DNA from: Lachnoclostridium sp. UBA3262
GTDB lineage: Bacteria > Bacillota > Clostridia > Lachnospirales > Lachnospiraceae
Direction: 5' to 3'
DNA length: 64,000 bases
NCBI GenBank assembly: GCA_002362575.1
Contig: DEUM01000009.1
Location: forward strand, 43,639-107,638
In this document: positions 3,781-31,904 of the stretch, in pieces
Numbering within the stretch: position 1 is the stretch's first letter
Layout of the letters: each line of letters begins with the position of its first letter
Notes under the pieces: model-generated
Database searches by the model: none
The model's input: the letters and a program-made list of their open reading frames with translations, nothing else
Told to the model about the DNA's origin: nothing
Translations under genes and position numbers: made by a program

Positions 3781-3907
3781 TGACTATATTGCAAGGGTAA
3801 GGGAATGACGGCGGTATCGACTCGGTTCTTGGTAATTCGCTGCGCAAATTGATAGAACCTCACTGATACCGCCGTCATTCCCCTTGGCTACCCTGCAATA
3901 TTAGTCG
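3781..3907. repeat. Long imperfect inverted repeat (REP-like hairpin element)
   Basis: Arm gggaatgacggcggtatc pairs with gataccgccgtcattccc; outer gacta..ttgca pairs with tgcaa..tagtc; core gtaattcgctgcgcaaattgatag. Confidence 0.75.
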
Positions 3908-3991
3908 CCTGCCGCTGCAAAAATGGTTTACTAATGGGGAGGGTACTACTGCCAGCGAGTTTGGATAAAAAAGGGGATAGAAAAAGAGTTG

Positions 3992-4083
3992 GTGAAAAGA
4001 GAGGGACAGAAAGCAGCGAGCACCTATCAATTCGCGAAGCGAATTACTATGGTGCGAGTCGGTTTCTGTTCCTCTCTTTTCAC
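3992..4083. repeat. Second long hairpin element carrying the same core in inverted orientation
   Basis: gtgaaaagagagggacagaaa pairs with tttctgttcctctcttttcac; core ctatcaattcgcgaagcgaattac. Confidence 0.75.
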
Positions 4084-4230
4084 TTCTCTGTTTTCAGCGT
4101 TTCTTTTTTACCACAACCCGCTATTGTAAAATAAAGCAAAACATGATATTCTAATCTATAACTGTGGGAAACTAGATTTCCGATAATAAGCCGCAAGGTT
4201 ATGTAAATTTACAGTAAAGGATGGTTTATC

Positions 4231-9189: not shown

Positions 9190-9223
9190 AACTGGAAACT
9201 GTAGATTTAAAAAAGAAAGGAAT

Positions 9224-10066: not shown

Positions 10067-10092
10067 AGTGCGGCTGAAAAGCGCGCACTCTT
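10065..10092. terminator. Hairpin between convergent genes, probable terminator
   Basis: agagtgcg pairs with cgcactct. Confidence 0.5.
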
Positions 10093-10116
10093 GAAGAACG
10101 GCAGAGCCGTTCTTGC

Positions 10117-10848: not shown

Positions 10849-11012
10849 AGACAGCCTCCATTTATATTAAGTATTATTTTGATATCATTATCTTTATCAT
10901 AGCATAAGAGATAAAAAATTGAAACAAGTTAAAAATTTAAGAAAAAGAGAGAATAAATGAGTAATAATGAGAATATATTATAAAATACTAGGATATTGAA
11001 AAAGAAGAGACT

Positions 11013-11041
11013 TTGCATTTCTATTCATTATTGCATATTAT
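11013..11041 (+). promoter_or_regulatory. SigA-type promoter of groESL
   Basis: TTGCAT-17-TATTAT immediately upstream of the CIRCE element. Confidence 0.55.
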
Positions 11042-11053
11042 AGAGCCAATGGG

Positions 11054-11080
11054 TTAGCACTCAATATCAAGGAGTGCTAA
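11054..11080. promoter_or_regulatory. CIRCE element (HrcA operator)
   Basis: Exact TTAGCACTC-N9-GAGTGCTAA upstream of groES. Confidence 0.97.
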
Positions 11081-11395
<315 letters not shown>

Positions 11396-11413
11396 GCATT
11401 AGGAGGGAAATGA

Positions 11414-13039
<1,626 letters not shown>

Positions 13040-13750: not shown

Positions 13751-13949
13751 TTAAAATAATAGACAGAAAAAATATATTATTAAAAATCTTCCCTTTATAA
13801 TCTTTAGAGTGAAAACAGTTAAACAGTTTGTTTTGCAATTTGTTTGTGGGTTATTCAGGGGAGATTTTGTGATTTTTAATATACAAAATTTCCTGTTTGG
13901 AAATCCTCTGTCTGTGTGGTATAATGAATATCAATATGTAAAACAGGAG

Positions 13950-16619
13950 ATGAAAGAATTGGAAAAAAGACTGGCGATTACTCTTATTTTTATACTTTTT
14001 ATGGGAATTGTTTTTCCATATATGCCTTCTGTGGCAGAGGAAACAGGGGCAGAGCGTATTACGATGACAGAGCTTTACAATAAAAGGGCTTCACTGATGG
14101 CAGAACAGGGAATGACTGTGACGATTTCATCTGCTGAAGAGATGGATATGTGGTCTAAATACTCAAATAGTAGAACGGCAAAAAATCCCAGTCTGTCAGG
14201 GGTAACAGTAGAGCTTTTGCAGGATATAAGATATTCTCCATATACATTTTCTTATAATGAAATGTCTGGACGGTTTGGCATTTATTCTTATGGGGAGTTA
14301 AAGGCGGCTTACGATGTAGAACGGGGGGTGTTCCGTTCTGATTTTTCGTCTGATGATGAGATAAATTTACCTAAAGATTGGAAGTTTTGGGATCCGATTA
14401 CCCAATTTGACGGAACCTTTGATGGAAATGGTCATTATATTGCCGGTTTACAGCAGAATGATGATGCTAGCTATTTTAAGACAGGGATGCTTTTTATTAA
14501 GCTGGGTGGTTGTGTGAAAAATCTGAAGCTGTCACAGTGTTATCTTAGTGGGCTACAAGACTACATAGGTGGCTATGGGGGTGCAATCTGTGGTGTTTTA
14601 CATGGCACAATAGAAAATTGCCATACTTCTGATATGTATATCAGTAGTAATAATTATATGGGTATAATTGGCGGATTAGTGGGAGTAATACAGGACGGAG
14701 GTATGGTAACAGTTTGTTCAGCAGAAACGTATATGCATGGTAACGGTGGGGATGTGGAGACCAATGGAGGTGCGATGGGCGGACTGGTGGGAGAAATATA
14801 TAATGGGGGTACGGTAACGGATTGTTCGGCAGAAACACATATGTATGGTACAAGAGCATGTGGGATGGGTGGACTGGTTGGAATAATATATACAGATCTG
14901 GATACGAATACAGATAGCGGTATTGAAATAAAAAGGAATTATGTATCAGGATTGATTCATAGTAATCCTAGTTTAGTTGAGTGTACGGGCGGGATAATTG
15001 GGAAAATCGCAGTTTCGAATTCCGCTTACAAGGGAGTGCATGAAGAAATAGAAGACTGTGTAAGTGAGATGGATATACAGTGGCAGCGGTGGGATTCGCT
15101 TGTGGAGGAAGATTATAGGTATAGGGGGGGATATAATGGTGGGATTGTTGGGTATTGTGAATCGGGAGACTGGTCTATTCTAAACTGCGAGAACCGGGGG
15201 ACACTATCAGGAGGAGTTTGGTTAGGGGGGATTGCGGGAAAGGTAGACAGTATGTTTATTAACCAGTGCAGAAATGCGGGAAATATAAGAGGAAACTGTA
15301 CTATAGGCGGTATTGTGGGGGAGTCATCGAACCTTGTGGCAATTGCAAATACAGAAAACATGGGAGACGTCACATGGGAAATAAAGAAAGGGTATAAAAA
15401 TACTGGAAGAGCATATCTTGGGGGAATGGTAGGAAATAGTGAGGGGAAACTGAAGGTTTCCAATAGCTTTGTTGATGGGAATGTTACGGTCAATGCAGAT
15501 AAGATAAATGATGTAATGGCGGGAGGCATTATAGGCTATTTTTGTAATTTTGAGGATGATTCGATTTCAAATAATCTCTGTGCTTATATGACGGTTGACG
15601 GGGAGAACGGTAACATTCTTTGCGGCTCTGCAAACATAGATGATCCTTTAAAATTGGTGGATGTCTATTATCCGGGAGAGAATGTGGATTCACAGTGTGA
15701 GAGTTTAAATGAGTGGGTAAGGACAAAATGTGAAGGAGAGTATAATTATGCTTATATAGACGGGAAGGAAACTTTCCCCTATGTGAAATGGATTTTGAAA
15801 CAGGGAGTTCCGAGACTACAGTTAGAGTATCTCACCAAACCGGAAAAGCCGGATCCGATTGTATTGCCTGAGCTGACGCCGCCTCCAACGGTAACTCCAA
15901 AGCCTGCAACTCCGACTCCAACGATAACTCCAAAGCCGACCGTACCTGCAACGCTGGCGCCAACACAAACATCGACTGCGCCGGATTCGACACGGACGCC
16001 GCTGCCAATAACAGAGACAAAAAAGCCGGCGCCATCCGCCATACCGGCTGTGACGGGAATTAAAATAAAGGTAACGAGAGACGCCGCCCTGACCATTCAA
16101 TGGAAACCGACGGCAGGAGTGTCCGGCTATTCGGTTTATCGCTCAAACAAGAAAAAATCAGGATACCGGGAGATTTCAAGCGTACCGTCCGGAAAACAAA
16201 AATGGCGGGACAGGTCAGTGAAAGAGAAGCATACCTATTATTATCGTGTGGCTGCCTATCGGATAGTTCAGGGAAGGAAAGTGTACGGAGTCAATTCTAA
16301 TCCTCAGAAAATCAAAGTGAAGCTGCGGGCTCCGGTAATTTCACTTAAAAAGAAAAAAAGCGGGAGCGGGCAGCGGTATATACAGATAAAGATAAGAAAG
16401 AAACGGGTTTCACAGGTGGAACTGTGGGTTAAAAAGGGAAAGAAGCCATTCCGGCGGATGAAGCTGCATGGAGTGGCGAAAAAGAAGAAAACGAATACAA
16501 TTAACCTGCGGTATAAACCGGAGGGTAAGAAGCTGCATGTTCGAGCCAGAATCATTCAAAAAAAGAAGAAAAAGCGGTATAAGAGTTACTATTCAAAAAC
16601 GAAAAGGATTCGGATATAA
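13950..16619 (+). CDS. Secreted/surface protein with GLUG-motif repeats, Pro/Thr linker, FN3-like domain and Lys-rich C-terminal domain
   Basis: Start placed at MKELEK after caggag; signal-like segment; FDGTFDGNGHYIAGL; about 9 GG(L/I)(V/I)G repeats; PTVTPKPATPTPT linker; LTIQWKP...YSVYRS...WRD...TYYYRVAAY. Confidence 0.8.
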   Translation: MKELEKRLAITLIFILFMGIVFPYMPSVAEETGAERITMTELYNKRASLMAEQGMTVTISSAEEMDMWSKYSNSRTAKNPSLSGVTVELLQDIRYSPYTFSYNEMSGRFGIYSYGELKAAYDVERGVFRSDFSSDDEINLPKDWKFWDPITQFDGTFDGNGHYIAGLQQNDDASYFKTGMLFIKLGGCVKNLKLSQCYLSGLQDYIGGYGGAICGVLHGTIENCHTSDMYISSNNYMGIIGGLVGVIQDGGMVTVCSAETYMHGNGGDVETNGGAMGGLVGEIYNGGTVTDCSAETHMYGTRACGMGGLVGIIYTDLDTNTDSGIEIKRNYVSGLIHSNPSLVECTGGIIGKIAVSNSAYKGVHEEIEDCVSEMDIQWQRWDSLVEEDYRYRGGYNGGIVGYCESGDWSILNCENRGTLSGGVWLGGIAGKVDSMFINQCRNAGNIRGNCTIGGIVGESSNLVAIANTENMGDVTWEIKKGYKNTGRAYLGGMVGNSEGKLKVSNSFVDGNVTVNADKINDVMAGGIIGYFCNFEDDSISNNLCAYMTVDGENGNILCGSANIDDPLKLVDVYYPGENVDSQCESLNEWVRTKCEGEYNYAYIDGKETFPYVKWILKQGVPRLQLEYLTKPEKPDPIVLPELTPPPTVTPKPATPTPTITPKPTVPATLAPTQTSTAPDSTRTPLPITETKKPAPSAIPAVTGIKIKVTRDAALTIQWKPTAGVSGYSVYRSNKKKSGYREISSVPSGKQKWRDRSVKEKHTYYYRVAAYRIVQGRKVYGVNSNPQKIKVKLRAPVISLKKKKSGSGQRYIQIKIRKKRVSQVELWVKKGKKPFRRMKLHGVAKKKKTNTINLRYKPEGKKLHVRARIIQKKKKKRYKSYYSKTKRIRI

Positions 16620-18034
16620 TGAAAGAAAAGGAACTGCAAAAGGGAGCGATAGTGAGGGAGCGCTACCGGATTGAGAAAATTCTAGGACAGGGTGGTTTCA
16701 GCATTACATATCTTGCCACAGATGAGCGGATGAATGTTCCTGTCGCATTAAAGCAGTATGATATGTCTAAATTACTGACTGGGGATGAGGCGAAAAGGGA
16801 AGCACAGCTCGCTGCCTGTTTTTATGATTTGGAAGGAATCGCGGCAGCGAGAGATTATTTTGAAGAACAGGGAATCTTTTTTATCGTCATGGAATATGTA
16901 GACGGAATCAATATTACGGATTTTGTGAAACATCATGGCAGTATGAACGGACAGGATGTTTTAGAAAAGATGAGACCGATTCTGCATAGTCTGAGCCGGA
17001 TTCATGAAAAGGGCGTAATTCACCGGGATATTAGTGGAGATAATCTGATTTTATCAGCAGATGGAAAATTGAAACTGATTGATTTTGGTGCCGCCAGACA
17101 GCGGATTCAAGATGATGAAAAGCCATATACCCTGATTTATAAGAGGGGCTTTGCGCCTATCGAACAGTGCCAGAGCCACGGTGTTCAGGGACCGTGGACG
17201 GATGTGTATGCAGTCTGCGCTACGATGTATTTTATGCTGACTGGTATTATTCCGGATGATGCGGTTGACCGTATGATACACGACCGTGTGCGCCCGCTGG
17301 AGGATTTTGTGGGAATCGGACTTAATCGGGAGGAAGCCGCTGCTATTATGAAGGGAATGGCGGTAGAAGTAAAGAAACGGTATTCTTCAGTGCGTGATTT
17401 GTATTCTGATTTGTATGGTGAGAAGCTGGTTCAGAGTGAGATTTCAACAGAAGCAAACTGGACGTATCGGGAAGATAGAAAAAACAGAAAACAGAATACA
17501 ACCTATCTTGCCAGACAGGTAGAACGGTTTTATAGAAAGAAATATATAAAAAAGAAATATCTGATAGCGGTGATTCTGGTATTATTATTGATAGTGACTG
17601 GTTTTATGTTTTGGAGAAATACTTCGGCGGGCAACCAGACAGAACGAATAGCCAGAGCTACCGGGCAGCCGGTGAAACCGAAGAAGCCGGAGAAGTCTGA
17701 GAAGCCAAGTCAGGTAAAGGTAGGAGAATATACCGGAAAAAACCAAAAGGACATACAGAAGGAGCTGAAATTCTATCAGAAAAAGGGAATGAGGCTTCAG
17801 ATTATTAAAAAGTATAGCAGGAAGAAGAAGGGCAGAGTGCTCTCACAGAAGCCTTCCTCAGGCAGTGTTTATACTTCATGGAAGGAGGTAACGCTGACAC
17901 TGATTGTCAGCAGAGGGGAAAAGCCGGAAAGAACACCAGAGCCTACGCCTAAGAAAACTTCGAAACCAAAACAGGAGAAGGGAAAAAGCGAAAAAGGGAG
18001 CGTGACATTTCATGGAAATCTGGATGAACTCTGA
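16619..18034 (+). CDS. Hanks-type Ser/Thr kinase with one TM segment and one PASTA domain
   Basis: GQGGFS, VALK, HRDISGDN, DFG, APIE and DVY motifs; TM YLIAVILVLLLIVTGFMFW; PASTA-like VGEYTGKN...GRVLSQKPSSG...LIVSRG. Start overlaps the upstream stop (taatg). Confidence 0.9.
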   Translation: MKEKELQKGAIVRERYRIEKILGQGGFSITYLATDERMNVPVALKQYDMSKLLTGDEAKREAQLAACFYDLEGIAAARDYFEEQGIFFIVMEYVDGINITDFVKHHGSMNGQDVLEKMRPILHSLSRIHEKGVIHRDISGDNLILSADGKLKLIDFGAARQRIQDDEKPYTLIYKRGFAPIEQCQSHGVQGPWTDVYAVCATMYFMLTGIIPDDAVDRMIHDRVRPLEDFVGIGLNREEAAAIMKGMAVEVKKRYSSVRDLYSDLYGEKLVQSEISTEANWTYREDRKNRKQNTTYLARQVERFYRKKYIKKKYLIAVILVLLLIVTGFMFWRNTSAGNQTERIARATGQPVKPKKPEKSEKPSQVKVGEYTGKNQKDIQKELKFYQKKGMRLQIIKKYSRKKKGRVLSQKPSSGSVYTSWKEVTLTLIVSRGEKPERTPEPTPKKTSKPKQEKGKSEKGSVTFHGNLDEL

Positions 18035-18082
18035 TAGCAAACTGATTTGGCCGGAATGTTGACGCTTTAGTAGAATGGAGAA

Positions 18083-19381
18083 ATGATGGAGAATTCAAGT
18101 TATTATACGTTTGAACATTTTTTACTGGAGAAATGGGGAAAGCCGGGAGAGGGAGATACCGAAGAAAAAAGGCGGGAAAAAGCGTTTCAGCGATTCTCAC
18201 ATGCAGTCAGAAATAAACATATTGCTTCAAAACAGACCATGCGGAAATGGTTTTCACTAAATGGTTGTTCACTGCCTTCCAGAGAGCATATTTTGCGTCT
18301 TGGGCTGGAACTGGGTATGTCGGTGAAAGAAACGGAAGAATACCTGACTTATGGGATTTCTGAGCCTCAGCTTCAGGTCAACGACTATATGGAGTTTGCG
18401 GCGATGTACTGTCTTGAGCACAAGCTGGGATATTTGGAGTACGAATCAATCATAGAATTTTATGAGCTGGAAACGGAGAACGATACAGAAATTCGCCAGA
18501 CAAACCATACGGAACGGATGCTGAATCTGTATCAAGAGGTAAAGGACTATGAGAAGAAAGCTTTTATGATATGGATGTGCCAGAATTCAGAGTTATTTAA
18601 GGGTTATAGTAAGACAACCTATGACTGCTTTTGTTCGCTGGTGGAGGAGTGTCTTTTGTCCTTCCGTGAACAGAATAAGAATGCGTTAGAGAATACTCTG
18701 TTAAAAACAGATTTTTCCGAATGGGCGGCTGCGCAGGAGATTCCGGAGGAGGACAGGCTTCAGGCGATTCCCCGCTACGTTAAGAACCGGAAACGAGGGA
18801 AGCGTCATACGCTGTCAAAGGAGCTTCAGCGGGAAATACGGGAGGACTACCTGTTTGCTTATTCTTCGCAGGACCGTCTCTGCGATTTGCTTATCGTTTT
18901 GTGGGAGGAGCGGATACCAAAAAAGATCGATATGCAGGAAATCCGTCTGACAAACCGGAAATATATTTCAGAGCTTCTTTCGATATCACTTCAGAAAAAA
19001 AGGCAAATGGAGATGAAACGGGAGTTGATCCGTCTAAAAAAGCGTGAGGAGGCTGGAGAAGTGGTGTCAGAGGAGCGAAAAATGCTGCGCCGGGCGTTGA
19101 CAATGCAGACTCAGCGGGTACGGATGATTACCCGTTCTGATTTACTTTTGCTGACTCAGTATGTAGCCGGTGAGCGTTACAACGAGGAAATAAACGAACA
19201 GGCAAAGGAGTTTGACAGGGAGGAGGCAAAGGAGTACTTTATCTATTTTGCCAACACGATTTTGTCAAGCTGTAAAATGAGGCTGCTGGATGAACGGTAC
19301 CGTCTAGATAATGAGTTGTTGTCCTGCTTCAGAGAGGACGAGATGATTCTTCTCTCGAAATTATTGCAGGGGGATTTTTGA
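18083..19381 (+). CDS. Hypothetical protein with two HTH-like modules
   Basis: PSREHILRLGLELGMSVKETEEYL near the N-terminus and a related ITRSDLLLL...CKMRLLDERYRLD near the C-terminus. Confidence 0.55.
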   Translation: MMENSSYYTFEHFLLEKWGKPGEGDTEEKRREKAFQRFSHAVRNKHIASKQTMRKWFSLNGCSLPSREHILRLGLELGMSVKETEEYLTYGISEPQLQVNDYMEFAAMYCLEHKLGYLEYESIIEFYELETENDTEIRQTNHTERMLNLYQEVKDYEKKAFMIWMCQNSELFKGYSKTTYDCFCSLVEECLLSFREQNKNALENTLLKTDFSEWAAAQEIPEEDRLQAIPRYVKNRKRGKRHTLSKELQREIREDYLFAYSSQDRLCDLLIVLWEERIPKKIDMQEIRLTNRKYISELLSISLQKKRQMEMKRELIRLKKREEAGEVVSEERKMLRRALTMQTQRVRMITRSDLLLLTQYVAGERYNEEINEQAKEFDREEAKEYFIYFANTILSSCKMRLLDERYRLDNELLSCFREDEMILLSKLLQGDF

Positions 19382-19451: not shown

Positions 19452-19588
19452 GATGGAAAATGTTGAAACTTGTTCTGTCTTGCGGGTGGTATAGTGAGTG
19501 AAAGGCGGTGGCAATTTCCAGCAAGGAAAGGAAGCGGAAAAGACTATTTTGTAGATGCATGGGGAAATGTGTTGATATATTTTTCGAG

Positions 19589-19607
19589 ATGGACGTATTG
19601 TGTCCAT
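19589..19607. promoter_or_regulatory. Candidate operator palindrome ATGGAC-N7-GTCCAT
   Basis: Inverted repeat just upstream of an extended -10-like tgatataa, ahead of the HTH gene. Confidence 0.45.
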
Positions 19608-19675: not shown

Positions 19676-19915
19676 TTGAAGGAAGTAAGCAAAGTTACAC
19701 GGGTGCTTAGCATTTACAATAAACTGGTCGGAGGGGAAATTGTAAATAAAGTATTTGAGGCGAATCGATTTGGTGTGAGTGAGAAATCAATTCAACGGGA
19801 TATTGACGAGATTCGAACATATTTATCGCAATCAATTGTTGATGGATATGGAATAGTTGGCGAAGTAGTTTATGATCAAGCGAAAAAGGGATATCGCCTG
19901 AAGCAGATTGTTTGA
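19676..19915 (+). CDS. Stand-alone winged HTH resembling the N-terminus of WYL-domain regulators (no WYL domain)
   Basis: RVLSIYNKLVGGEIVNK..EANRFGVSEKSIQRDIDEIRTYL...YDQAKKGYRL, followed by a stop codon. Confidence 0.7.
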   Translation: MKEVSKVTRVLSIYNKLVGGEIVNKVFEANRFGVSEKSIQRDIDEIRTYLSQSIVDGYGIVGEVVYDQAKKGYRLKQIV

Positions 19916-19998
19916 GGGGGAGTGCCTTTTTTGTGAGGCAATCACTAAGTATGGTTTCATACAAAAAGATGTAAATTGTTTGTTTTTGCCATTGTGAG

Positions 19999-20952
19999 GT
20001 GGTGACAATAGTGAGTATAGTAATTGGTTCATTTAATATTAGGGATTTGAATTTTTCGAATGAAAGTAAAGATGGAGAAACACAAAAAAGAGATTTTCCA
20101 CTTATAGCAGATATGATAATTAAAGAAGGGTTTGATGTAGTTGCTATTCAAGAAGTAAATGCTCCCATGGCTTTGGAGAGAATAGTATTTTATTTAAATA
20201 AAAAGAAAAACCTTTTACATGAATGGGAATGCGACGCAAGTGGTAAAGCTGCAACTACCAATAATGATCCGGAAGGTTATGGATTTATTTGGAATAAAAA
20301 AAGAATTAGACTAATGGATATTTCAAGGAAAAATAATCCTACTTTTTATAATTGTGCTGGGGGAAAGAATGTCATCCGACCTCCATATTATGGCAGATTT
20401 ACAACAAGAGGTTTGCCTGGCGGTTCTAATTGTGAGATTAGGCTGGTCAATACGCATATTCATGATGCTAGTAGAGAACTTGAGCGTATTGCAGAATTCG
20501 ACGTTTTGGTCAAGCAGGTTTTGCCAAGGATATGTGATCATAATGAATTGCCAGTATTTAATGAGATGATGCCAGCATATACATTTTTACTTGGTGATTA
20601 CAATCTTAGGCTTGATAAGGGCGAGAGAGCCGATGTAAGAATAGAAAGTATCACACCAACCTTATATACAAACAAAAAGCGATATTATAAAACAGTACAA
20701 GAGGAGAAAACTTCCTTAAAAACGATTAAGATGATTGATCAAGATGCCGACTTGCGAGATTGTTATAAAAGCAATTATGATCATTTCACATATGAGTTTG
20801 ACTTGATTAGAAAACTAAAGCTACATGAAGAACGTGTTGAGGCTCTGGGGAAGTATTTTGGAAAAGAAAAGTCGGCACAAGAAATTCTGCAGTTATATAG
20901 GGAAAAAGTTTCTGACCATGTGCCAATAAAAATGACTGTGGACTTAAAATAA
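19999..20952 (+). CDS. Endonuclease/exonuclease/phosphatase (EEP, DNase I-like) family protein
   Basis: Complete catalytic motif set: SFNI, DVVAIQEV, VNTH, LGDYN, YDH and SDHVPI. The start could be the GTG at 20011. Confidence 0.85.
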   Translation: MVTIVSIVIGSFNIRDLNFSNESKDGETQKRDFPLIADMIIKEGFDVVAIQEVNAPMALERIVFYLNKKKNLLHEWECDASGKAATTNNDPEGYGFIWNKKRIRLMDISRKNNPTFYNCAGGKNVIRPPYYGRFTTRGLPGGSNCEIRLVNTHIHDASRELERIAEFDVLVKQVLPRICDHNELPVFNEMMPAYTFLLGDYNLRLDKGERADVRIESITPTLYTNKKRYYKTVQEEKTSLKTIKMIDQDADLRDCYKSNYDHFTYEFDLIRKLKLHEERVEALGKYFGKEKSAQEILQLYREKVSDHVPIKMTVDLK

Positions 20953-20973
20953 AAATGAAAGGATAAGCTAAGG

Positions 20974-23559
20974 ATGCATAACGAGGTACTCGGGATTGAT
21001 AAACATACTGAAATGGAAAAACGACAGGCTGCTTACGCATTGAATATGTGTACTGTTTCGGTTTCTCAAATTGTGGATTATAACGATGCCTATATTATGG
21101 AACAGGAATATGAAGCGATTTTGAATAATTTGAATCTTAAACAGATGCCCAAAGACGAGGCACTACTAAGAATATTGTCTGAAATCATGAATACAATTAC
21201 ATTTTTCCGTATTCAGGATATTAGAAAAAAACAAATAGAAAAGAAATATGAATCACGTATGAAGAATGCAATCTGGTCGGCTGTGCCAAGTCTAAATGTA
21301 GTAGTTTCGGGGAACCCCGTAGCAATTGCATTGGCATTAGTTACACAAATAGGCTCAGGATATATGAATTATAGAAAAGAAAAAGCTAGTGCTGGAACCG
21401 ATAAAGAAGATGCTGAAATAGAACTGGAAATTACTGCAATTGAGCAATTGAATTCATTAAAAAGAGAACTTTTTACTACAGCTTGGAGATTGGCAGATGA
21501 ATATGATTTCGAGGATGAATGGAGACTGACAGAAAAACAAATAAAACAATATAATGATATTTTGATTGATTATGATGAATTAAGAAAATATGAACGGTTA
21601 GATGCAATGAAAGAGAATTTTTCTGCATATCCTCCATTTTGGTATTATATTGGAAATGCAGCCAACAATATTGCCAAAAGCCACGAACTTGAGTTGAGTG
21701 TTGAGACCAGGCAGAAGTATAAAGAAATTGCATTAGCTCATTTTGAAAAGTATGAGGAAGTGAGTGAGAACAGTATTCTTCGTCAGGATCAATTAAATTC
21801 ATCATGTGCTTTGGAGCATGTTGAATTATTGCTAGAAGACAATAATTTTGACAGAGATAAGGTGGTAAAACTAATTACTAAAGCTGCAAAAATGTCTGGC
21901 AATGCATTTGATGTTCTGCAGGTATGCTCAATTGCATTTTTGAAAATAAATGAATTAGAAGGTGCAAGTAGAATTCTGAGAATTCTTGTAAATGAAGATT
22001 ATAACAAAACTGTAAATGCTCAATTATTAAGTGGAATATATGTAAGAGAAAAAAATAAAATTGATTATGATATTCTTACAACTAGAGTTGCACCTCAATA
22101 TCTTTATCCTCTGCCTTTGCAAGGAGAGGATGAAGCTGTTTTAGAAGCAAAATTTGAACAACAACAAAAGAAGGTACTAAAAGGGAAATATAAAAAAGTC
22201 CTTGAGAAGACTATTGATAAGTATTCAATGGAATTGTATAGAGAGATTTCTATTTTTGACTTAGATGAAGAATATTCCGATGATTTTTTTGAAAATAGTA
22301 AAAGGGCTAAGAAAACCCGTATTATGTCGGCAAAGAGAATGTTTCTAGATGATTCCAAGCGCGATTATTATCTTGAAAGAATGAGTTCAATTAATCTTCC
22401 GACAGAATATGTTGATATATTAGAGAATATGTTTGGGGCATTATTTAAAACATCAATTTATTCAGATCCTGTTCTTCAAGGAGAGGCTTTAGATAGGACA
22501 AGCAATGCGATTGTTACTTATCGAGATGCTATTAATTCAATTCAGGAAGATATTAAGAACCAATCATTTTCATTGAAAGATTACGAAAGGATTCAGAGGG
22601 TGGGTATATATCATTTTGTGAAAGATGCATTTAACATGTTATATCATCAGACGTGTAAAATGATTGACGGTGCTGTAATGAACGATTTATTATCAATGGA
22701 AGGTGATTTGTTATCTTACTGTGATAGAGTAGGGATTGCAATGCCAGAAATTTCCTTGGGTGGAGAGTGCAGTAATAAAGATTTTGATGAACCGAAGGAA
22801 TTGTTTGATGTGAGTATGTTTGGAGCCAAGGCAATATCTGTTAAGCGTGATTTGGACTATATTAACAATATGCTCGCTTTTATTGAGAATAAGATGAATG
22901 ATGCAAATGCAGGAGAAAACTTGGTTATTTTATACAGAGGTAATGTAGAATTTGAGCGATATTTCAATGATGTAGCATTTGAAAAATATCCTTCACTCAA
23001 GTCAAATTCATTAATGATAATAAAAAGTAATGGAAAGACAAGGACTGACTTAATCTATACAACGGAAGGTATTGTTTATGTTCAGAAGGGCAAGGTTAAG
23101 AAGAAAACACCATATGCAGATGTTATATATGCACAAGATAATTTGGTGTTATTCGGAACAAAGTATAAGAACGACTCAATCAACATTGCAGTTTTATATG
23201 ACATTGTAAAGGGAATTGACAAGAAGTTTATCAACGTCAACGATTTAGAACAGAAAATTGAGTATGTAGGAAAAATTGATGCTAAATCATTAAATGAATG
23301 GTTTAAGAGTCGCCCAGATGCTATGGATGATAGTGTAACAAGGGTTTATGCTTGGCCAAATAAGGAATTATTTAATGGATTAGGCTATTGCTTGCAGGAA
23401 GATTTAGACAGTGAAAGGTATTTGCTTCAGTTTTATTATGATAATGAATCAAATGATATTATTGGATTACGAATTGTAGAGTTTGATGCAATTGATGAAT
23501 CATTAAAGTCTAAACTGAACGGTGCAGGTGGTGTAATTCAATTGGAAAAAGGGGGGTGA
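20974..23559 (+). CDS. Large hypothetical protein: hydrophobic segment plus coiled coil, TPR-like helices, PH-like segment and a C-terminal module shared with the downstream genes
   Basis: 861-aa ORF with RBS aagga. The domain reading is by eye only. Confidence 0.75.
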   Translation: MHNEVLGIDKHTEMEKRQAAYALNMCTVSVSQIVDYNDAYIMEQEYEAILNNLNLKQMPKDEALLRILSEIMNTITFFRIQDIRKKQIEKKYESRMKNAIWSAVPSLNVVVSGNPVAIALALVTQIGSGYMNYRKEKASAGTDKEDAEIELEITAIEQLNSLKRELFTTAWRLADEYDFEDEWRLTEKQIKQYNDILIDYDELRKYERLDAMKENFSAYPPFWYYIGNAANNIAKSHELELSVETRQKYKEIALAHFEKYEEVSENSILRQDQLNSSCALEHVELLLEDNNFDRDKVVKLITKAAKMSGNAFDVLQVCSIAFLKINELEGASRILRILVNEDYNKTVNAQLLSGIYVREKNKIDYDILTTRVAPQYLYPLPLQGEDEAVLEAKFEQQQKKVLKGKYKKVLEKTIDKYSMELYREISIFDLDEEYSDDFFENSKRAKKTRIMSAKRMFLDDSKRDYYLERMSSINLPTEYVDILENMFGALFKTSIYSDPVLQGEALDRTSNAIVTYRDAINSIQEDIKNQSFSLKDYERIQRVGIYHFVKDAFNMLYHQTCKMIDGAVMNDLLSMEGDLLSYCDRVGIAMPEISLGGECSNKDFDEPKELFDVSMFGAKAISVKRDLDYINNMLAFIENKMNDANAGENLVILYRGNVEFERYFNDVAFEKYPSLKSNSLMIIKSNGKTRTDLIYTTEGIVYVQKGKVKKKTPYADVIYAQDNLVLFGTKYKNDSINIAVLYDIVKGIDKKFINVNDLEQKIEYVGKIDAKSLNEWFKSRPDAMDDSVTRVYAWPNKELFNGLGYCLQEDLDSERYLLQFYYDNESNDIIGLRIVEFDAIDESLKSKLNGAGGVIQLEKGG

Positions 23560-23563
23560 TCGT

Positions 23564-23941
23564 ATGGGAATAGGTGCAATGATAGTATCATTGGTAGTTG
23601 CTGGGCTGATTGTTACAACTGTAATTACAATTGTTTACTTGACTGCTAAAAAACTTAAAGAATTAATTCAAAAAAGAAAAGAAAAGAATAGAAAATCCAA
23701 GGTTGCATTTGGAGAAACGAGAAAAATTGTAAAAGAAAATGCTAGGGAAATTCTAAAGAATGCGCCGTCAATGACGATGGATGATCTTGAGAGAACATGT
23801 GAAGAGACTCCATATTTTGTTGTTGACTATGACTCTGAAACCGATGAGGTGTCGGATTATGCAACAATAAAAACTGACAGCACTGACGAAAAGATTGAAA
23901 GTATTATGAACCAGAATGATGGTATTATTTTATTTGATTAG
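23564..23941 (+). CDS. Small single-pass membrane protein (shared-module family)
   Basis: N-terminal TM; C-terminus YDSETDEV...DEKIESIMNQNDGIILFD. Confidence 0.75.
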   Translation: MGIGAMIVSLVVAGLIVTTVITIVYLTAKKLKELIQKRKEKNRKSKVAFGETRKIVKENAREILKNAPSMTMDDLERTCEETPYFVVDYDSETDEVSDYATIKTDSTDEKIESIMNQNDGIILFD

Positions 23942-23950
23942 GAGGAAAAA

Positions 23951-24337
23951 ATGGTAAGAGAAATATTAATTGGAACAGGTGGAGTAATTATTGTTGCGGC
24001 TATTATTGCGGCGATAAAATATAAGATGGCTCATCAAGATGATGGTGAAATTGAAAGAATTTTTGTTGATGAGTTGAATATGGGTGAAATTAAGAAATGG
24101 TTTGTTGATAAGATGACTAATGATTCGATGATAGGTATTGTTTTTCTTCCTACAAAAGAGAATGTTAATAAGTGGAAAGTAAAAATGCCTGAGCAAAACA
24201 ATGTTTTAATTCAACTTATTTATAGTAAAGCTAATGACAAGATGATTTCATACAGAGAAGTAGGATATGCTGAAATTAGTGAAAAGGTAAAGAATCTTTT
24301 GGATATGAATGGCGGAACTATAGTAATCGAAAAATAA
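23951..24337 (+). CDS. Small single-pass membrane protein (shared-module family)
   Basis: RBS ggagg; N-terminal TM; EIKKWF...LIQLIY...SEKVKNLLDMNGGTIVIEK. Confidence 0.8.
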   Translation: MVREILIGTGGVIIVAAIIAAIKYKMAHQDDGEIERIFVDELNMGEIKKWFVDKMTNDSMIGIVFLPTKENVNKWKVKMPEQNNVLIQLIYSKANDKMISYREVGYAEISEKVKNLLDMNGGTIVIEK

Positions 24338-24356
24338 GTGATAATGGAGGTGCGAT

Positions 24357-24623
24357 ATGCTTGGGTGGTTATTACTTGGAGCATTGTTCACAGCAGCGGT
24401 AATTATAATATGTGTTTCATATTTAGATAAAAAAACGGCAATGAATAAGCTTAGAGAGAAGAGTATCCATAAAGGCGTAGTGAGGGATATTTTTCAATCA
24501 GGAAATGTTACACATATAAAACTTGACGCTATAGATACAGATGGTAATGAGAAAGAAGTTGAGTTTGAGGCAGATGCTTACAACTCCTATGAAATTAGAA
24601 AAGGAATGACAATAGTAGCATAA
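24357..24623 (+). CDS. Small single-pass membrane protein
   Basis: RBS ggaggtg; TM LGWLLLGALFTAAVIIICVSYL followed by a short beta-rich tail. Confidence 0.75.
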   Translation: MLGWLLLGALFTAAVIIICVSYLDKKTAMNKLREKSIHKGVVRDIFQSGNVTHIKLDAIDTDGNEKEVEFEADAYNSYEIRKGMTIVA

Positions 24624-24637
24624 AGGAGAAAAACGAA

Positions 24638-25027
24638 ATGTCTGAAAGTTTATCTAAATTGTCAAAAGCTGTAGAGGCATTTACAGATGTATTGACAGAA
24701 GGTATAGATTCAAAGAAGAATATTGGAATATATAAATACGAGGATTTTATTAAGTTTTTTAGAGAAAACAGAAAAGAGTATTCTATTATCAAAAAATGTA
24801 CTATTTCTGTGACAAATGTTAATGAATTTGATGGAGTTAGGTTTCCAGAGAAAAAATTTCTTATTAGAATTGTTTTATTGGATAAAAATAATAGTCCCAT
24901 TTCAATTAATGGTAAAGACGATGAAATCTTGGGAAATATAACAATTGCTAACTCGATTGACAATAAATTAGTAGAATTTATGGGTAAAAGAACAGAGAAG
25001 ACTGTTGTCTGGAAGGGAGAAAAATAG
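24638..25027 (+). CDS. Small soluble or peripheral protein, probably a divergent member of the shared-module family
   Basis: RBS aaggag; YEDFIKFF...FLIRIVLLDKNN...SIDNKLVEFM. Confidence 0.7.
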   Translation: MSESLSKLSKAVEAFTDVLTEGIDSKKNIGIYKYEDFIKFFRENRKEYSIIKKCTISVTNVNEFDGVRFPEKKFLIRIVLLDKNNSPISINGKDDEILGNITIANSIDNKLVEFMGKRTEKTVVWKGEK

Positions 25028-25354
25028 ATGTTGCCATTAATACCAATTATAGCCTTGATAGGTCCTGCTCTAGCTATGGGAGCGGTAGTATATTTAGCGG
25101 TAAAACTTACTATTTCTTTTTTAAAAAAATATAAACAAAAGAAAAATTCAAAGATAATGGCTGCTTATGTTGGGGACTTGATGAAAAATGCTCCAACGAT
25201 GTCTTTAGACGGTTTGGATGATGAGGATGTTGTTCTTGCTGAGTATGATGAAGACGAGGATGAATTAGTCCAGGATATTAGTATTTCGAGAGATACTGAT
25301 GAAAAGGTATCCGGAATAATCAAAAATAATGGTGGAATCGTGGTGTTTGAATAA
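25028..25354 (+). CDS. Small single-pass membrane protein, paralog of 23564-23941
   Basis: KNAPTMSLD vs KNAPSMTMD; DEKVSGIIKNNGGIVVFE; start abuts the upstream stop (tagatg). Confidence 0.8.
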   Translation: MLPLIPIIALIGPALAMGAVVYLAVKLTISFLKKYKQKKNSKIMAAYVGDLMKNAPTMSLDGLDDEDVVLAEYDEDEDELVQDISISRDTDEKVSGIIKNNGGIVVFE

Positions 25355-26697
25355 TGTTAGTTTATTTATACTTTTCAAAAAATAAAATATCCCAAATAAA
25401 TAATCTTGATTATGTGAAAGAAAATGTTGCAAAGAGTATAACGAAAGCTTTTAATATGTCTGCAACTATTAAGCGCTCTGATATAAGTGTACGATGTGGC
25501 AAAATATCAAAGGGTATTGATGTGTTTTTAGTAATAGATTCGAATCCATTTGCTGGAAATAGTGAAACTGCGATTGCAATGACTAAAATAAAGGAGTTAA
25601 TTAAGACTATTATTCAGACGGATCAATCTAGTCAGCTCGAATATAAAATTACATATAAGATTGAGAAAAACCATTCACCTATGGGGATAGAATATATGGG
25701 AGGTGGTGTTTTGCAAGGTAATGAGTCTGTTCACCAATTCGATAATGATGAAGAGGTGTCTGAACTTGATTATGCAAGTAGAGCTCAAGCATATGTCCCA
25801 GTAGCCCCAGCATATTCTTTTGATAGAGTAATTCTTCCCGAAGATGTTCTAGAAAAAATTGACTCTGCAATTAATATCCTTAGATATGAAAGAAGAGTTT
25901 TTCAAGAGTGGGGATTGTATGAAATCCAACCGAACCCATCCTCATCATTAAGTTTTTATGGACCATCTGGAACTGGAAAAACTATGGCGGCCGAAGCTAT
26001 AGCAGATAAACTTAGAAAGAAAATACTTAAAGTGAGTTATGCTGACGTTGAAAGTAAGTACCATGGCGAGGGACCTAAAATGGTTAAAGCTATTTTTTGG
26101 GCAGCAGAAAAAGAAGATGCGGTTTTGTTTTTTGATGAGGCGGATTCTTTGCTGTCAAAAAGATTAACTAATGTTTCGCAAGGATCTGAACAAGCAATTA
26201 ATTCGATGAGAAGTCAACTATTGATTTGCCTAGAGGAATTTAAGGGTATCGTGATTTTTGCTACTAATTTGGTTGTGAACTATGATAATGCATTCTTAAC
26301 ACGTTTGATTAGTGTTGAATTTAAATATCCGGATGCACCAACTAGAAAAAGAATATGGGATGTTCACGTTAAGTCTTCTGCAAATAAAAAATTAAATATA
26401 CCATTGGCAGATGATGTTGATACTGAAGAATTGGCGGGAAAATACGACTTTGCAGGGCGAGAAATCAGAAATGCTGTTATCTCAGCCTGTGTTAATGTTG
26501 CTATGAATGAACGTGAAATTGTAAAACAAGAAGATTTTATAAAAGCCTGCGATAAAATTGTTGAAGAAAAAGCGGGGGTTGCTAGTGCTAGTGATCATAC
26601 AACAATGAGTGAAAAAGAGAAGGAAGCTCTTAAGCAAGCGTTAATTTCAAAGATAAAAGAAGGAGGTATTACTAATGTTTCTACGACCACTGAGTAA
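25354..26697 (+). CDS. Classic-clade AAA+ ATPase with a novel N-terminal domain
   Basis: Walker A GPSGTGKT, pore loop SKYHGEG, Walker B VLFFDEAD, SRH IFATNL..NYDNAFLTR, lid FAGREIRNAV. Confidence 0.9.
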   Translation: MLVYLYFSKNKISQINNLDYVKENVAKSITKAFNMSATIKRSDISVRCGKISKGIDVFLVIDSNPFAGNSETAIAMTKIKELIKTIIQTDQSSQLEYKITYKIEKNHSPMGIEYMGGGVLQGNESVHQFDNDEEVSELDYASRAQAYVPVAPAYSFDRVILPEDVLEKIDSAINILRYERRVFQEWGLYEIQPNPSSSLSFYGPSGTGKTMAAEAIADKLRKKILKVSYADVESKYHGEGPKMVKAIFWAAEKEDAVLFFDEADSLLSKRLTNVSQGSEQAINSMRSQLLICLEEFKGIVIFATNLVVNYDNAFLTRLISVEFKYPDAPTRKRIWDVHVKSSANKKLNIPLADDVDTEELAGKYDFAGREIRNAVISACVNVAMNEREIVKQEDFIKACDKIVEEKAGVASASDHTTMSEKEKEALKQALISKIKEGGITNVSTTTE

Positions 26698-27076
26698 TGA
26701 TCAAAAAGAGTTGTTTTTGAATTTGGCTTTAGCCGCAGCATCGGCAAATAATCTAATTGAAGATTCTGAGAGACTTTTGCTTGTTGCATATGCAGATGAA
26801 ATGTCTATTGATGTTAATAAGGCATCAATGATGCAGATGGATGAAATATGCAGAAAATTAAAACAAATTTCTAATTCAAAAGAGTTAAATCAGATAGCTT
26901 TTGAGATTGTTGGCATGATGATGATCGACAATGAATATGACAAAGAGGAGAAAACATTTATTTTGAAGATGGCTGAAATTTTTGAAATTCCACAAAGTCG
27001 AATAGATAAAATGTTTAGTTGTGCTAATGAGTATTCGGCGTTGATAAAGAAAATTAATGTTTTAATGTATGAGTAA
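26675..27076 (+). CDS. TerB-like (tellurite-resistance TerB fold) protein
   Basis: Two helical halves: ELFLNLALAAASANNLIEDSE and MMMIDNEYDKEEKTFILKMAEIFEI. Confidence 0.7.
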   Translation: MFLRPLSNDQKELFLNLALAAASANNLIEDSERLLLVAYADEMSIDVNKASMMQMDEICRKLKQISNSKELNQIAFEIVGMMMIDNEYDKEEKTFILKMAEIFEIPQSRIDKMFSCANEYSALIKKINVLMYE

Positions 27077-27096
27077 TCAGATTTAATTCAAGATTG

Positions 27097-27128
27097 AAGG
27101 TGCGAAGAAATTCGCGCCTTTTGTATTT
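27097..27128 (+). terminator. Intrinsic terminator closing the AT-rich operon
   Basis: aaggtgcgaa-gaaa-ttcgcgcctt followed by ttgtattt. Confidence 0.75.
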
Positions 27129-27785: not shown

Positions 27786-27823
27786 ATAAAGACTTGAACC
27801 TGACAGATGATTTTCTAATCAAT

Positions 27824-27853
27824 TGTTACTATTTACAGCTATATGGAATAACA
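27824..27853. mobile_element. 30-bp imperfect palindrome flanked by a duplicated atcaat
   Basis: atcaat-[tgtta...taaca]-atcaat in copy 1 versus a single atcaat in copy 2. Confidence 0.55.
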
Positions 27854-28685
27854 ATCAATCGTGTGATGTCAGATGCTACTTATGGAGAGGAGTTTGCCAA
27901 AATTCTTTTGGGAACTATTTTCCATAGAGAAATAGGACCGTTGGTTGTCATCCCACAGAAGGTAGAGTATGGGATAGAGACAGAATGTCACGGTATCCGG
28001 TTAGATGTATATATGGAGGAAAAAGATGCCGGTATTTTTGACATGGAAGCAGACCAGAACTGGTCATTAAAAGACAGACAGTCACTGCCAAAGAGAGTAA
28101 GGTTATACCATGCAAAGATAGACGCCGGGGTTTTGGAAAGCGGAGGCGAGTATAGAGACTTGCGGAATGTCTGTGTCATCTTTATTACAACCTATGATCC
28201 ATTTGATAAGAAACGTATGGTTTACACGATTAAGAATTGCTGCACAGAGGAGCCGGACCTCCCCTACGAGGATGGTGCAAGGACAATTTTTCTCTATACA
28301 AGGGGAGTGAATGGGAATCCGCCTGCAGATTTGGCAGAATTGCTCCGGTATATGGAGGACACGACGGAGAAAAATGTGTGCAACGAAAGCATTAGAAGAC
28401 TTCATGAGATGGTTCAGCATACAAAACAGGATGCGAAAGCGGGGTTGGCTTATATGAAGTGGTATGAGATTGAGACAATGTGCAGGGAGGAAGGGGAATT
28501 TTTATTTGCTATTAAGATGGTAAGGAAGTTATTGCAGGAGCAGCAGACAATAGATAAGATTTCCCAGCTTACAGAACTGCCATATACCTTGATAGAGAAA
28601 ATCATGGAACAACTTAATCTTCATCCGGAATGGGATAACGAACAGATATTAGAGAAGATAGAAAAGTAAAATCATTAGGAATTGT

Positions 28686-31019: not shown

Positions 31020-31904
31020 ATGCTGAAAAGGACACTAAAAGACTTGAACCTGACGGATGATTTTCTAATCAATCGTGTGATGTCAGATGCTACTTATGGA
31101 GAGGAGTTTGCCAAGATTCTTTTGGGAACTATTTTCCATAGAGAAATAGGACCGTTGGTTGTCATCCCACAGAAGGTAGAGTATGGGATGGAGACAGAAT
31201 GTCATGGTATTCGGTTAGATGTATATATGGAGGAAAAGGATGCCGGTATTTTTGACATGGAAGCAGACCAGAACTGGTCATTAAAAGACAGACAGTCATT
31301 GCCGAAGAGAGTAAGGTTTTACCATGCCAAGATAGATTCCGGGGCATTGGAGAGCGGAGGCGAGTACAGGGATTTGCGGAATGTCTGCGTCATCTTTATT
31401 ACAACCTATGATCCATTTGATAAGAAACGTATGGTGTACACGATTAAGAATAGTTGCACAGAGGAGCCGGACCTTCCCTACGAGGATGGTGCGAGAACGA
31501 TTTTTCTCTATACAAGGGGCGTGAATGGGAATCCGCCTGCGGATTTGTCAGAATTACTCCGGTATATGGAGGATACCACGGAGAAAAATGTGTGCAACGA
31601 AAGCATTAGAAGACTTCATGAGATGGTTCAGCATACGAAGCAGGATGCGAAAGCGGGGTTGGCTTATATGAAGTGGTATGAGATTGAAAGTATGTGCAGG
31701 GAGGAAGGCAGAGAAGAAGGCAGAAAAGAGAGGCAATTGTTTACGATTAAAATCATAAAGAACTTAGTAAGCCGGAATGAGTCAACAGAAGAAATATCTA
31801 AGCTTATCGAATTGCCATATGCGTCGGTAGAGGAAATCGTGAAACAATTCAAACTTCATCCGGAATGGGATAACGAACAGATATTAGAGAAAATAGAAAA
31901 GTAG
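31020..31904 (+). CDS. Rpn family recombination-promoting nuclease / putative transposase (PD-(D/E)XK_2), intact copy
   Basis: LTDDFLINRVM, GIRLDVY, DMEADQ, RVRFYHAKID, VCVIFITTYDPF, IFLYTRG and REEGREEG motifs. Confidence 0.85.
   Translation: MLKRTLKDLNLTDDFLINRVMSDATYGEEFAKILLGTIFHREIGPLVVIPQKVEYGMETECHGIRLDVYMEEKDAGIFDMEADQNWSLKDRQSLPKRVRFYHAKIDSGALESGGEYRDLRNVCVIFITTYDPFDKKRMVYTIKNSCTEEPDLPYEDGARTIFLYTRGVNGNPPADLSELLRYMEDTTEKNVCNESIRRLHEMVQHTKQDAKAGLAYMKWYEIESMCREEGREEGRKERQLFTIKIIKNLVSRNESTEEISKLIELPYASVEEIVKQFKLHPEWDNEQILEKIEK

Follow-up and report, generated by a model that had tools for sequence, protein, structure and literature searches.

A 64,000-nucleotide stretch of DNA from Lachnoclostridium sp. 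UBA3262 (contig DEUM01000009.1), hereafter called the window, contains an operon of ten tightly spaced open reading frames (ORFs), all on the + strand between positions 19676 and 27076. We judge it about evenly poised, from the sequences, whether this operon is an undescribed mobile multi-gene conflict system, namely a membrane-associated abortive-infection defence against phages or other invading DNA. The ORFs encode, in this order, a helix-turn-helix (HTH) remnant of a regulator, a predicted nuclease of the endonuclease/exonuclease/phosphatase fold (EEP), an 861-residue protein (BIG), five small proteins (S1 to S5), an AAA ATPase (AAA) and a TerB-fold protein (TerB); L-numbers denote related loci. 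An earlier note, made from the window's sequence alone, had singled these genes out as a candidate system whose members should keep company elsewhere. They do: the gene arrangement is far beyond chance, because the set was found again in at least 12 further loci, with BIG proteins only 42-82% identical to that of the window.

The comparison of related loci revealed which part of the operon is the constant one. A pattern scan of species-representative genomes returned 79 loci, to which metagenome loci were added for the long form described below. The 79 loci span Bacillota, Actinomycetota, Spirochaetota and Bacteroidota, with representatives in Lachnospiraceae, Oscillospiraceae, Veillonellales, Erysipelotrichales-type Solobacterium, Eggerthellaceae, Treponema and other Spirochaetota, and Prevotella and other Bacteroidales. 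EEP adjoins BIG in 74 of them, while two are cut by contig ends and three are without it. We considered whether the effector upstream of BIG is sometimes swapped and rejected the idea, as the apparently EEP-less loci L045, L050 and L063 carry divergent EEPs. Most BIGs align only over residues ~15-750, and their loci have neither small proteins nor AAA nor TerB. This short form (EEP and BIG, with or without a WYL regulator) is also what is found in the one other same-genus carrier genome and in all four loci with a BIG match among 400 genus representatives of the family. The long form is rarer. It is represented by the genome loci L011, L012 and L014 and by the metagenome loci L006, L008, L010, L093 and L095-L098; a further genome locus, L036, is truncated by a contig end. 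In these loci the C-terminal module of BIG (C-module), the small transmembrane (TM) proteins, AAA and TerB occur jointly, apart from L095, which is without TerB; none of the four was detected in the ~70 short-form loci. The conserved core is therefore the EEP-BIG pair, and the small proteins, AAA and TerB are an add-on present where BIG carries the C-module. The claim that the ten genes form one unit thus holds in that the set recurs together in long-form loci, but the unit is not indivisible, since its core occurs as EEP and BIG alone.

Long-form loci follow one of two gene orders, EEP-BIG-S1-S2-S3-S4-S5-AAA-TerB (order A, as in the window) or EEP-S2-S3-BIG-S1-AAA-TerB (order B), the latter with add-on genes interleaved with the core, and the minimal add-on set comprises S1, S2, S3, AAA and TerB. 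Because the module, the small proteins, AAA and TerB co-occur and interleave with the core, and because the AAA N-domain family is restricted, the sequence evidence argues for the long form being one integrated system rather than two neighbours. The alternative would be that EEP and BIG happen to lie next to a separate membrane-protein/AAA/TerB module serving quality control or envelope stress. The self-sufficiency of EEP and BIG in most genomes is in line with this alternative, as is locus L100, which keeps S2-S5 and AAA without EEP and BIG. However, the C-module of BIG is homologous to the small proteins and present only where they, AAA and TerB occur, the gene orders interleave both sets, neither the AAA N-domain nor the module was found in other contexts, and L100, with its broken TerB, looks like a decayed remnant. 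Altogether, two independent systems seem highly improbable to us.

Individual loci depart from these prototypes in several ways. Locus L100 (positions 8247-11570; ena:ERZ14864788 NODE_185) has intact S2-S5 and AAA genes, no EEP, BIG or S1, and a TerB with an internal deletion and a frameshift; its neighbours encode a kinase-NB-ARC STAND protein and a DnaJ protein, and a WYL regulator gene follows 6 kb downstream. As L100 was the sole candidate for an independent S/AAA/TerB module, and its TerB is internally deleted, we discarded the notion of such a module. L095 (14442-16018) is an otherwise complete A-order locus in which no TerB follows AAA, so that TerB may be dispensable or may have been lost there. 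Locus L010 has an extra gene for a 382-residue protein of no known family between the WYL regulator and EEP (3492-4640), as well as duplicated S1- and S2-type genes; across loci the number of small proteins ranges from three to seven. Among the immediate neighbours of related loci, DUF697-type membrane-associated proteins turned up three times, and judging from their sequence starts, L023:9492-9962 and L030:12395-13033 appear to be of this type, one of them lying between EEP and BIG. Such proteins may be another optional membrane-linked add-on.

The predicted effector, EEP, scores weakly against Pfam PF03372 (E 0.018, 15.3 bits against a cut-off of 24.5) and better against the NCBIfam MnuA model (2.8e-17), where its 63.7 bits are under the 185-bit cut-off. 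Since it falls under the curated thresholds of both databases, EEP is, on these scores, a divergent branch that belongs to the fold at superfamily level only. Nevertheless, the complete EEP/DNase I set of catalytic and metal-binding residues (N13, E52, H153, D200, N202, D261, H262, D306 and H307, in the motifs N, E, H, D-x-N, D-H and S-D-H) is invariant in 26 homologues, and a profile search of PDB matched DNase I and DNase gamma with E-values of 2e-7 to 9e-7 (DNase I 2.4e-7). The same search returned no sphingomyelinase or inositol phosphatase at E <= 0.01. A hydropathy scan found no TM segment in EEP, and no signal peptide was evident by eye. EEP thus looks like an active, catalytically intact and cytoplasmic DNase I-like enzyme. 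The family assignment made in the earlier note, weak as it is in Pfam, is backed by the MnuA match and the conserved residues, and the idea of a nuclease-type effector by the full catalytic set and the PDB matches. EEP resembles DNase I and MnuA nucleases in its fold and catalytic set, and its nearest solved structures are DNase I and DNase gamma; it differs from them in being predicted to be cytoplasmic, with no signal peptide or lipobox evident, in scoring far under the MnuA cut-off and in always being paired with BIG.

A variant of our interpretation keeps the same system and lets EEP act on membrane lipids or phosphorylated small molecules, with killing or signalling at the membrane, where BIG, the small proteins and TerB would be located. 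The EEP fold includes lipid phosphodiesterases and phosphatases. Moreover, every other component of the operon is membrane-linked, and the Pfam match is to the generic EEP family only. Yet the PDB profile search returns DNase I and DNase gamma and nothing else at the threshold given above, and the best NCBIfam model is a nuclease family. In addition, the conserved EGYAF and IRxPYYARF segments resemble, by eye, what we take to be the bovine DNase I segments containing E78 and the DNA-contacting R111. We therefore regard a lipid or small-molecule substrate as quite unlikely.

The histories of EEP and its partner do not run in parallel. The window EEP is 54-61% identical to the EEPs of the short-form loci L013, L016, L058 and L085. 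Between the window and the long-form locus L011, identity is only 35% for EEP and 56% for BIG. Such disagreement between the two phylogenies suggests that recombination took place between the genes for the nuclease and for BIG.

BIG belongs to a family with more than 1,800 homologues, all of them unnamed and essentially without Pfam domains, apart from PF14559 (TPR_19), which was matched in five of 35 homologues. Scans against Pfam, NCBIfam and PADLOC assigned no family to BIG or to the small proteins, and a BIG profile found nothing among PDB sequences. An AlphaFold (AF2) model of BIG (mean pLDDT 78.6; a second model, of residues 645-861, reached 92.6) predicts residues 1-640 to be all-helical. 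The most conserved domain is modelled with two very long helices (H62-103 and H115-176) and a hydrophobic tip (residues 103-135) that bears the invariant GxGYMNYR motif (alignment A1); residues 106-127 form a marginal hydrophobic window (KD 1.69). A Foldseek search with the full model retrieved only generic TPR proteins (E 1.6e-3 to 3e-2). For the PH-like part (residues 650-753), the best PDB match was the bacterial PH-domain protein 3b77, with an E-value of 0.024 that is weak support, and FERM and myosin PH subdomains ranked below it. As no catalytic domain is evident in BIG from the models and family scans, we infer that the protein is a scaffold or sensor, perhaps seated at the membrane.

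The small proteins also provide a link to the membrane. S1, S2, S3 and S5 each start with a strongly hydrophobic helix, which the hydropathy scan reads as a TM segment, followed by a Lys/Arg-rich stretch. These four N-terminal helices bear out the membrane association proposed at the outset. Because of the Lys/Arg-rich stretch after the helix, the positive-inside rule would place the C-terminal domains of all four in the cytoplasm. To compare these domains, the small proteins of 12 loci were clustered after removal of their TM segments. S2 falls together with the C-terminal ~105 residues of BIG (phmmer below 1e-8). S1 and S5 constitute a second module family, related to the first by hhalign (93.5% probability, E 2.3e-7, 90 columns). 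S3, by contrast with these, appears to have a different small domain (hhalign E 0.23 against the module); its orthologues were found in L006, L093, L095, L100 and the B-type loci. For S4 the relation is unproven (E 0.023 over 90 columns). The early suggestion that most of the unnamed proteins share one module therefore stands for the BIG C-terminus, S1, S2 and S5, but not for S3, nor, on present scores, for S4; neither was retained as a module copy.

How restricted this module is became clear from a profile search of 1.84 billion representative proteins, which gave 316 matches at E <= 1e-3. Among the 150 matches listed, most are small proteins and the others are BIG-length proteins or BIG fragments. 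Of the matches of greater or odd length that we inspected, the majority proved to be pieces of BIG or small TM proteins whose N-terminus is extended; the two exceptions were a mis-joined ORF and an unexplained 331-residue protein. Since the profile finds essentially only small proteins and BIG or its fragments, the module is, by sequence, specific to this system. Foldseek, run on a model of the PH-like domain plus module, found no match to the module fold in PDB or in the viral BFVD library.

The assignment of AAA as an AAA+ ATPase is solid (PF00004, 3.8e-24, with 86.1 bits where the cut-off is 21.2). The motifs expected of the clade, including the pore-loop aromatic, the sensor-1 Asn, the SRH arginine and sensor-2, are all present: 30 homologues show little or no variation in Walker A (GPSGTGKT), Walker B (FFDEAD), the pore loop (KYHG), ATN, R317 and GREIRN. 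The closest PDB relatives are VAT, Cdc48, p97 and Rpt. By its motifs and these nearest structures, AAA is of the Cdc48/PAN type and of the unfoldase kind, as had been proposed. The ATPase core (residues ~150-400) is almost invariant across homologues whose BIGs are only 42-55% identical (alignment A6). The N-domain, on the other hand, evolves fast, with 27-63% identity where the core has 78-92%. Its family numbers 80 proteins, nearly all of ~447 residues, and a search of 400 other genomes of the phylum gave no match that spanned the N-domain. These N-domains are of two types, which cannot be aligned with each other and which go with the two gene orders. A kinship between the N-domain and the module families was also considered, and hhalign detected no relation.

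TerB follows AAA so closely that their reading frames overlap by 23 nt, and overlap or abutment is kept in L006, L008, L010, L014, L093 and L097. Taken alone, the window protein is under the cut-off of PF05099 (18.8 bits against 24.4), so the TerB label given to it earlier is sub-threshold for this single sequence. It is supported at the family level: six of seven orthologues match PF05099 (best 2.6e-7), and their profile matches PDB entry 2ou3 (E 2.3e-5). A hydropathy scan found no TM segment in the window TerB.

These features can be combined into a working model. In relatives of the window locus, a WYL-type repressor would control the EEP-BIG pair. BIG, located at the inner face of the membrane, would keep the nuclease inactive, acting either as a sensor and scaffold or as a stoichiometric inhibitor, until an infection-linked cue frees or activates EEP; DNA would then be degraded and the invader stopped at the cost of the cell. 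In the long form, contacts between modules would tether BIG and the nuclease to a membrane array of S1, S2 and S5. The Cdc48/PAN-like AAA, its variable N-domain recognising the module proteins, would extract or unfold these proteins together with TerB, and this step would trigger or reset the system. By analogy, the AAA step would couple the freeing of the nuclease to surveillance of the membrane: when phage DNA enters, the membrane is damaged or a similar event occurs there, extraction or unfolding would follow and thereby direct the sequestered DNase I-like nuclease onto the nucleoid. That a segregase and TerB act in this particular way on a membrane-tethered module array, with a membrane event leading to nuclease release, is a tentative proposal that we think rather unlikely to be right as it stands. 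The broader picture drawn in the earlier note, a complex remodelled by an AAA+ unfoldase with a role in anti-phage defence or envelope stress, is likewise an extrapolation from the protein sequences.

The near-obligatory pairing of nuclease and BIG and their translational closeness also bring to mind a toxin-antitoxin-like addiction module, with EEP as the toxin and BIG as the antitoxin, which would stabilise the island and affect phages only incidentally. That the cassette resides on islands beside integrases and insertion sequence (IS) elements, and that the effector never swaps, would suit such a module. On the other hand, an antitoxin of 860 residues with several domains, including TPR and PH domains, is atypical, and so are a WYL regulator and seven extra long-form genes, an ATPase among them. 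Besides, known toxin-antitoxin modules often act in defence, so this explanation, which we consider unlikely, overlaps with the defence reading. Still another possibility is an export or competition device, in which the small TM proteins and AAA form a conduit delivering the nuclease into neighbouring cells. Several small TM proteins next to an ATPase might hint at this, and L008 lies near EssC/WXG100 genes of type VII secretion; these, however, lie beyond IS66 fragments. Furthermore, neither a signal peptide nor a motif for secretion is evident in EEP, each TM protein crosses the membrane once and its domain is predicted to lie in the cytoplasm, no gene for cognate immunity can be recognised, and most EEP-BIG loci have no TM proteins at all. 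Export of the nuclease is, in our view, barely plausible.

The genomic context offers several lines of evidence for mobility. In three same-genus genomes, the sequences of window positions ~13742 and ~35393 lie only 165-370 bp apart; two other genomes hold a different insert of 5-6 kb at the same site. Because the site is empty or filled with other cargo in these relatives, the operon sits in a 21.6-kb accessory island at a variable hotspot. BIG is present in one of 36 other same-genus genomes and in four of 400 other genus representatives of the family (~1%). The closest relative, the metagenome/MAG locus L093, matches the window without rearrangement over exactly the stretch that runs from the start of EEP to the stop of TerB (20001-27075; 80.5% DNA identity), and its flanks are unrelated. 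As identity stops exactly at these limits, the mobile cassette is, by this alignment, the nine-gene stretch from EEP to TerB, with the HTH remnant outside it. The horizontal acquisition suspected at first is thus upheld by the empty site in three same-genus genomes and by BIG relatives in four phyla. The same data bear on the possibility that the operon serves a host housekeeping or stress function, such as membrane repair, competence-related DNA processing or envelope stress. TerB and AAA proteins do act in stress responses, and some of the loci lie among housekeeping genes. Nonetheless, a distribution as patchy as that just described, the span of four phyla, the anomalous GC content, the position on an island at a hotspot, and the presence of a WYL regulator and defence-gene neighbours make such a function very unlikely.

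In the window, the regulator itself is incomplete. The 79-residue ORF matches the PADLOC WYL model over positions 2-60 (E 3.9e-5) and can be aligned by eye with the N-terminal portion of the WYL regulators in L006 and L093, both of which are full-length. The ORF ends just past the KGY(K/R)L motif common to those two regulators, and the EEP gene starts 83 bp further on. The WYL and C-terminal dimerisation domains are missing, and the winged HTH alone is left. Relatives encode WYL genes of 317-325 residues (PF13280) at the matching position, and a full WYL regulator is nearby in ~25 of the related loci. The proposal of a WYL-type HTH gene is therefore correct as far as the N-terminus goes, but not in the sense of an intact regulator. 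Since the regulator is reduced to its HTH, control of the window operon is probably altered; regulation of this copy may have been lost or changed. In several long-form loci the WYL regulator is accompanied by a recurrent, divergently oriented gene of the XRE-family HTH type, encoding 106-111 residues and placed just upstream (L006:5421-5756, L008:4070-4390, L093:8369-8704, L100:7707-8036). The window does not have this gene.

The neighbourhoods of related loci point in the direction of defence. We compared the 131 ORFs immediately flanking 22 loci with PADLOC at E <= 1e-10. Together they hit 136 PADLOC families, and many of the E-values were very strong; the families include DrmA and DrmD (DISARM), type I restriction-modification, type II methyltransferase, retron-type reverse transcriptase, AbiGi, SoFic and PDC candidates. 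For comparison, 40 core genes of the window matched three families, all weakly. The enrichment in defence families, rough but clear, agrees with the defence-like surroundings anticipated for the system. Particular examples are L093, which adjoins a UvrD helicase, a 1,509-residue SF1 helicase and a Schlafen/AlbA_2 protein, L010, which adjoins the CRISPR-associated cas6 and cas2, and L098, which adjoins a STAND NTPase and an integrase.

At the same time, the system itself corresponds to none that has been named. In PADLOC-DB v2.0.0 there was no match for EEP, BIG, S3, S4, S5 or TerB, and those for S1 and S2 were at chance level, as was the single match (AbiEii) obtained with 26 EEP homologues. 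Literature searches on WYL, TerB and AAA in combination, on EEP/DNase I-like defence and on PF03372 in defence found no description, and Kaur et al. 2020 (eLife 52696) mention neither TerB nor EEP. The impression of novelty recorded in the earlier note has thus survived both the PADLOC scan and the literature search.

Several described systems nevertheless share features with the operon. TerB proteins are also components of Bunzi and Shango, two defence systems with a proposed role in membrane surveillance (Millman et al. 2022, bioRxiv 10.1101/2022.05.11.491447). As in those systems, a TerB-fold protein is encoded here with an ATPase in a defence-type operon; in contrast to them, none of the ten window proteins matches the PADLOC Sng or Bunzi models, there is no helicase, and TerB is small, soluble, without a TM segment and coupled to a Cdc48-like AAA. 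The WYL-regulated defence operons of the BrxR/CapW type, which combine a nuclease effector with a sensor made of repeat domains, are similar in having a full-length WYL regulator (PF13280) directly upstream in the relatives, a predicted DNA-cutting effector with a large TPR-type non-enzymatic partner, and an island-borne, horizontal spread across phyla. They differ in that the window regulator is an HTH only, BIG belongs to no described family, the sensor has no fused NTPase, and a DNase I-like EEP effector is not listed in PADLOC v2 or in the literature searched. With IetAS (Gao_Iet) the operon has in common a stand-alone classical-clade AAA of ~400 residues in a candidate defence operon, IetA being its best PADLOC match (5.2e-24). 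Here, though, the NCBIfam IteA equivalog NF042959 gives 71.8 bits where its cut-off is 510, the N-domain differs and there are seven other components; moreover, Pfam, PADLOC and NCBIfam revealed no protease family in any of the ten window proteins, hence no counterpart of the subtilisin-type protease IetS. Given the 71.8 versus 510 bits and the lack of IetS, the PADLOC match reflects the shared AAA core. Finally, type III CBASS with TRIP13/HORMA (Cap6/Cap7) offers a parallel to the proposed AAA+ remodeller acting on small adaptors to switch a nuclease effector, and the window AAA has a weak PADLOC match to TRIP13 (6.2e-10). The difference is that PADLOC and Pfam scans show no HORMA or CD-NTase and there is no cyclic-nucleotide-activated effector, while the putative substrates here are membrane-anchored and share a domain with the sensor.

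A number of observations weigh against an abortive-infection defence. BIG was not found in the plasmid and phage collections searched, and IMG/VR contained one truncated match, so the prophage/plasmid hotspot signature common to many defence systems is missing. Many neighbourhoods consist of housekeeping genes, and a Pfam tally of the neighbours is heterogeneous. The effector never changes its enzyme class, whereas many sensor-effector defence families do swap theirs. The absence of TerB from L095 also counts here, as does the retention of S2-S5 and AAA in L100 without EEP and BIG, although TerB is broken in L100. The module has no known fold or partner, which makes its relation to AAA as a substrate a matter of pure inference, and the membrane association of BIG relies on the marginal hydrophobic segment and the weak PH match described above. 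Lastly, the truncated regulator could signal that the window copy is misregulated or decaying.

Should the system prove to be a true defence, bacterial immunity would gain a DNase I-type effector and a sensor family that has no annotation at all. The long form would then amount to a natural experiment, the same core with and without a membrane adaptor array and a Cdc48-like unfoldase, and could reveal how an AAA+ segregase and TerB are wired into immunity and how a dangerous nuclease is restrained in the cell. The BIG family is common in gut and rumen anaerobes, in which defence repertoires are poorly charted.

The layout of the operon is that described from the start, ten co-oriented genes with gaps of 0-83 bp and a single terminator (Table 1). 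From the HTH remnant to S5 the intergenic gaps are, in order, 83, 21, 4, 9, 19, 14 and 0 nt, and a TAATG overlap joins the S5 stop to the AAA start. A GGAGG-type ribosome-binding site precedes every start inspected at the junctions. The AT-richness noticed earlier is likewise real, with GC fractions of 0.28-0.38 for the operon genes and 0.42-0.50 in the flanks.

Table 1. Features of the operon and their positions in the window
Feature	Positions	Strand	Description	Basis
Candidate promoter	19572-19601	+	Promoter-like hexamers upstream of the HTH remnant	Consensus scan, pattern match only
Candidate operator	19589-19607	+	Putative; palindrome ATGGAC-N7-GTCCAT overlapping the promoter-like hexamers	Regular-expression search, pattern match only
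HTH remnant	19676-19915	+	Winged-HTH-only remnant of a WYL-family regulator, 79 aa; WYL and C-terminal domains deleted	PADLOC WYL, alignment by eye
EEP	19999-20952	+	DNase I-like EEP-fold enzyme, 317 aa; predicted effector	NCBIfam, alignment, profile
BIG, residues 1-185	20974-21528	+	Most conserved domain; two very long helices and hydrophobic tip	Alignment A1, AF2
BIG, residues 186-645	21529-22908	+	TPR-like repeats (~190-370), then further all-helical region	AF2, Foldseek
BIG, residues 646-755	22909-23238	+	PH-like beta-sandwich	AF2 (pLDDT 92.6), weak fold match
BIG, residues 756-861	23239-23556	+	C-terminal alpha/beta module ending GGxIxxE; long-form BIG only	Alignment, AF2
S1	23564-23941	+	125 aa; TM 1-29 and module (S1/S5 subfamily), predicted on the cytoplasmic side	Hydropathy, clustering, hhalign
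S2	23951-24337	+	128 aa; TM 1-27 and module closest to BIG C-terminus	Hydropathy, phmmer, alignment A7
S3	24357-24623	+	88 aa; TM 1-25 and short C-terminal domain; kept in every long-form locus	Hydropathy
S4	24638-25027	+	129 aa; without TM; optional, A-order loci only	Hydropathy, hhalign
S5	25028-25354	+	108 aa; TM 1-33 and module; S1 paralogue	Hydropathy, clustering
AAA	25354-26697	+	Classical-clade AAA ATPase, 447 aa; system-specific N-domain (1-135) and ATPase core	PF00004
TerB	26675-27076	+	TerB-fold protein, 133 aa; translationally coupled to AAA	PF05099 at family level
Terminator-like element	27096-27128	+	Intrinsic-terminator-like hairpin and T-run (27096-27121), then tail; operon end	11-pair stem with 5 GC pairs

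The island (13742-35393) also carries other cargo. A trio of genes at 13809-19381 encodes a surface protein, a PASTA kinase and a double-HTH protein, and further along there are Rpn-type PD-(D/E)xK genes (27794-28669 and 31020-31904) together with zinc-ribbon membrane proteins.

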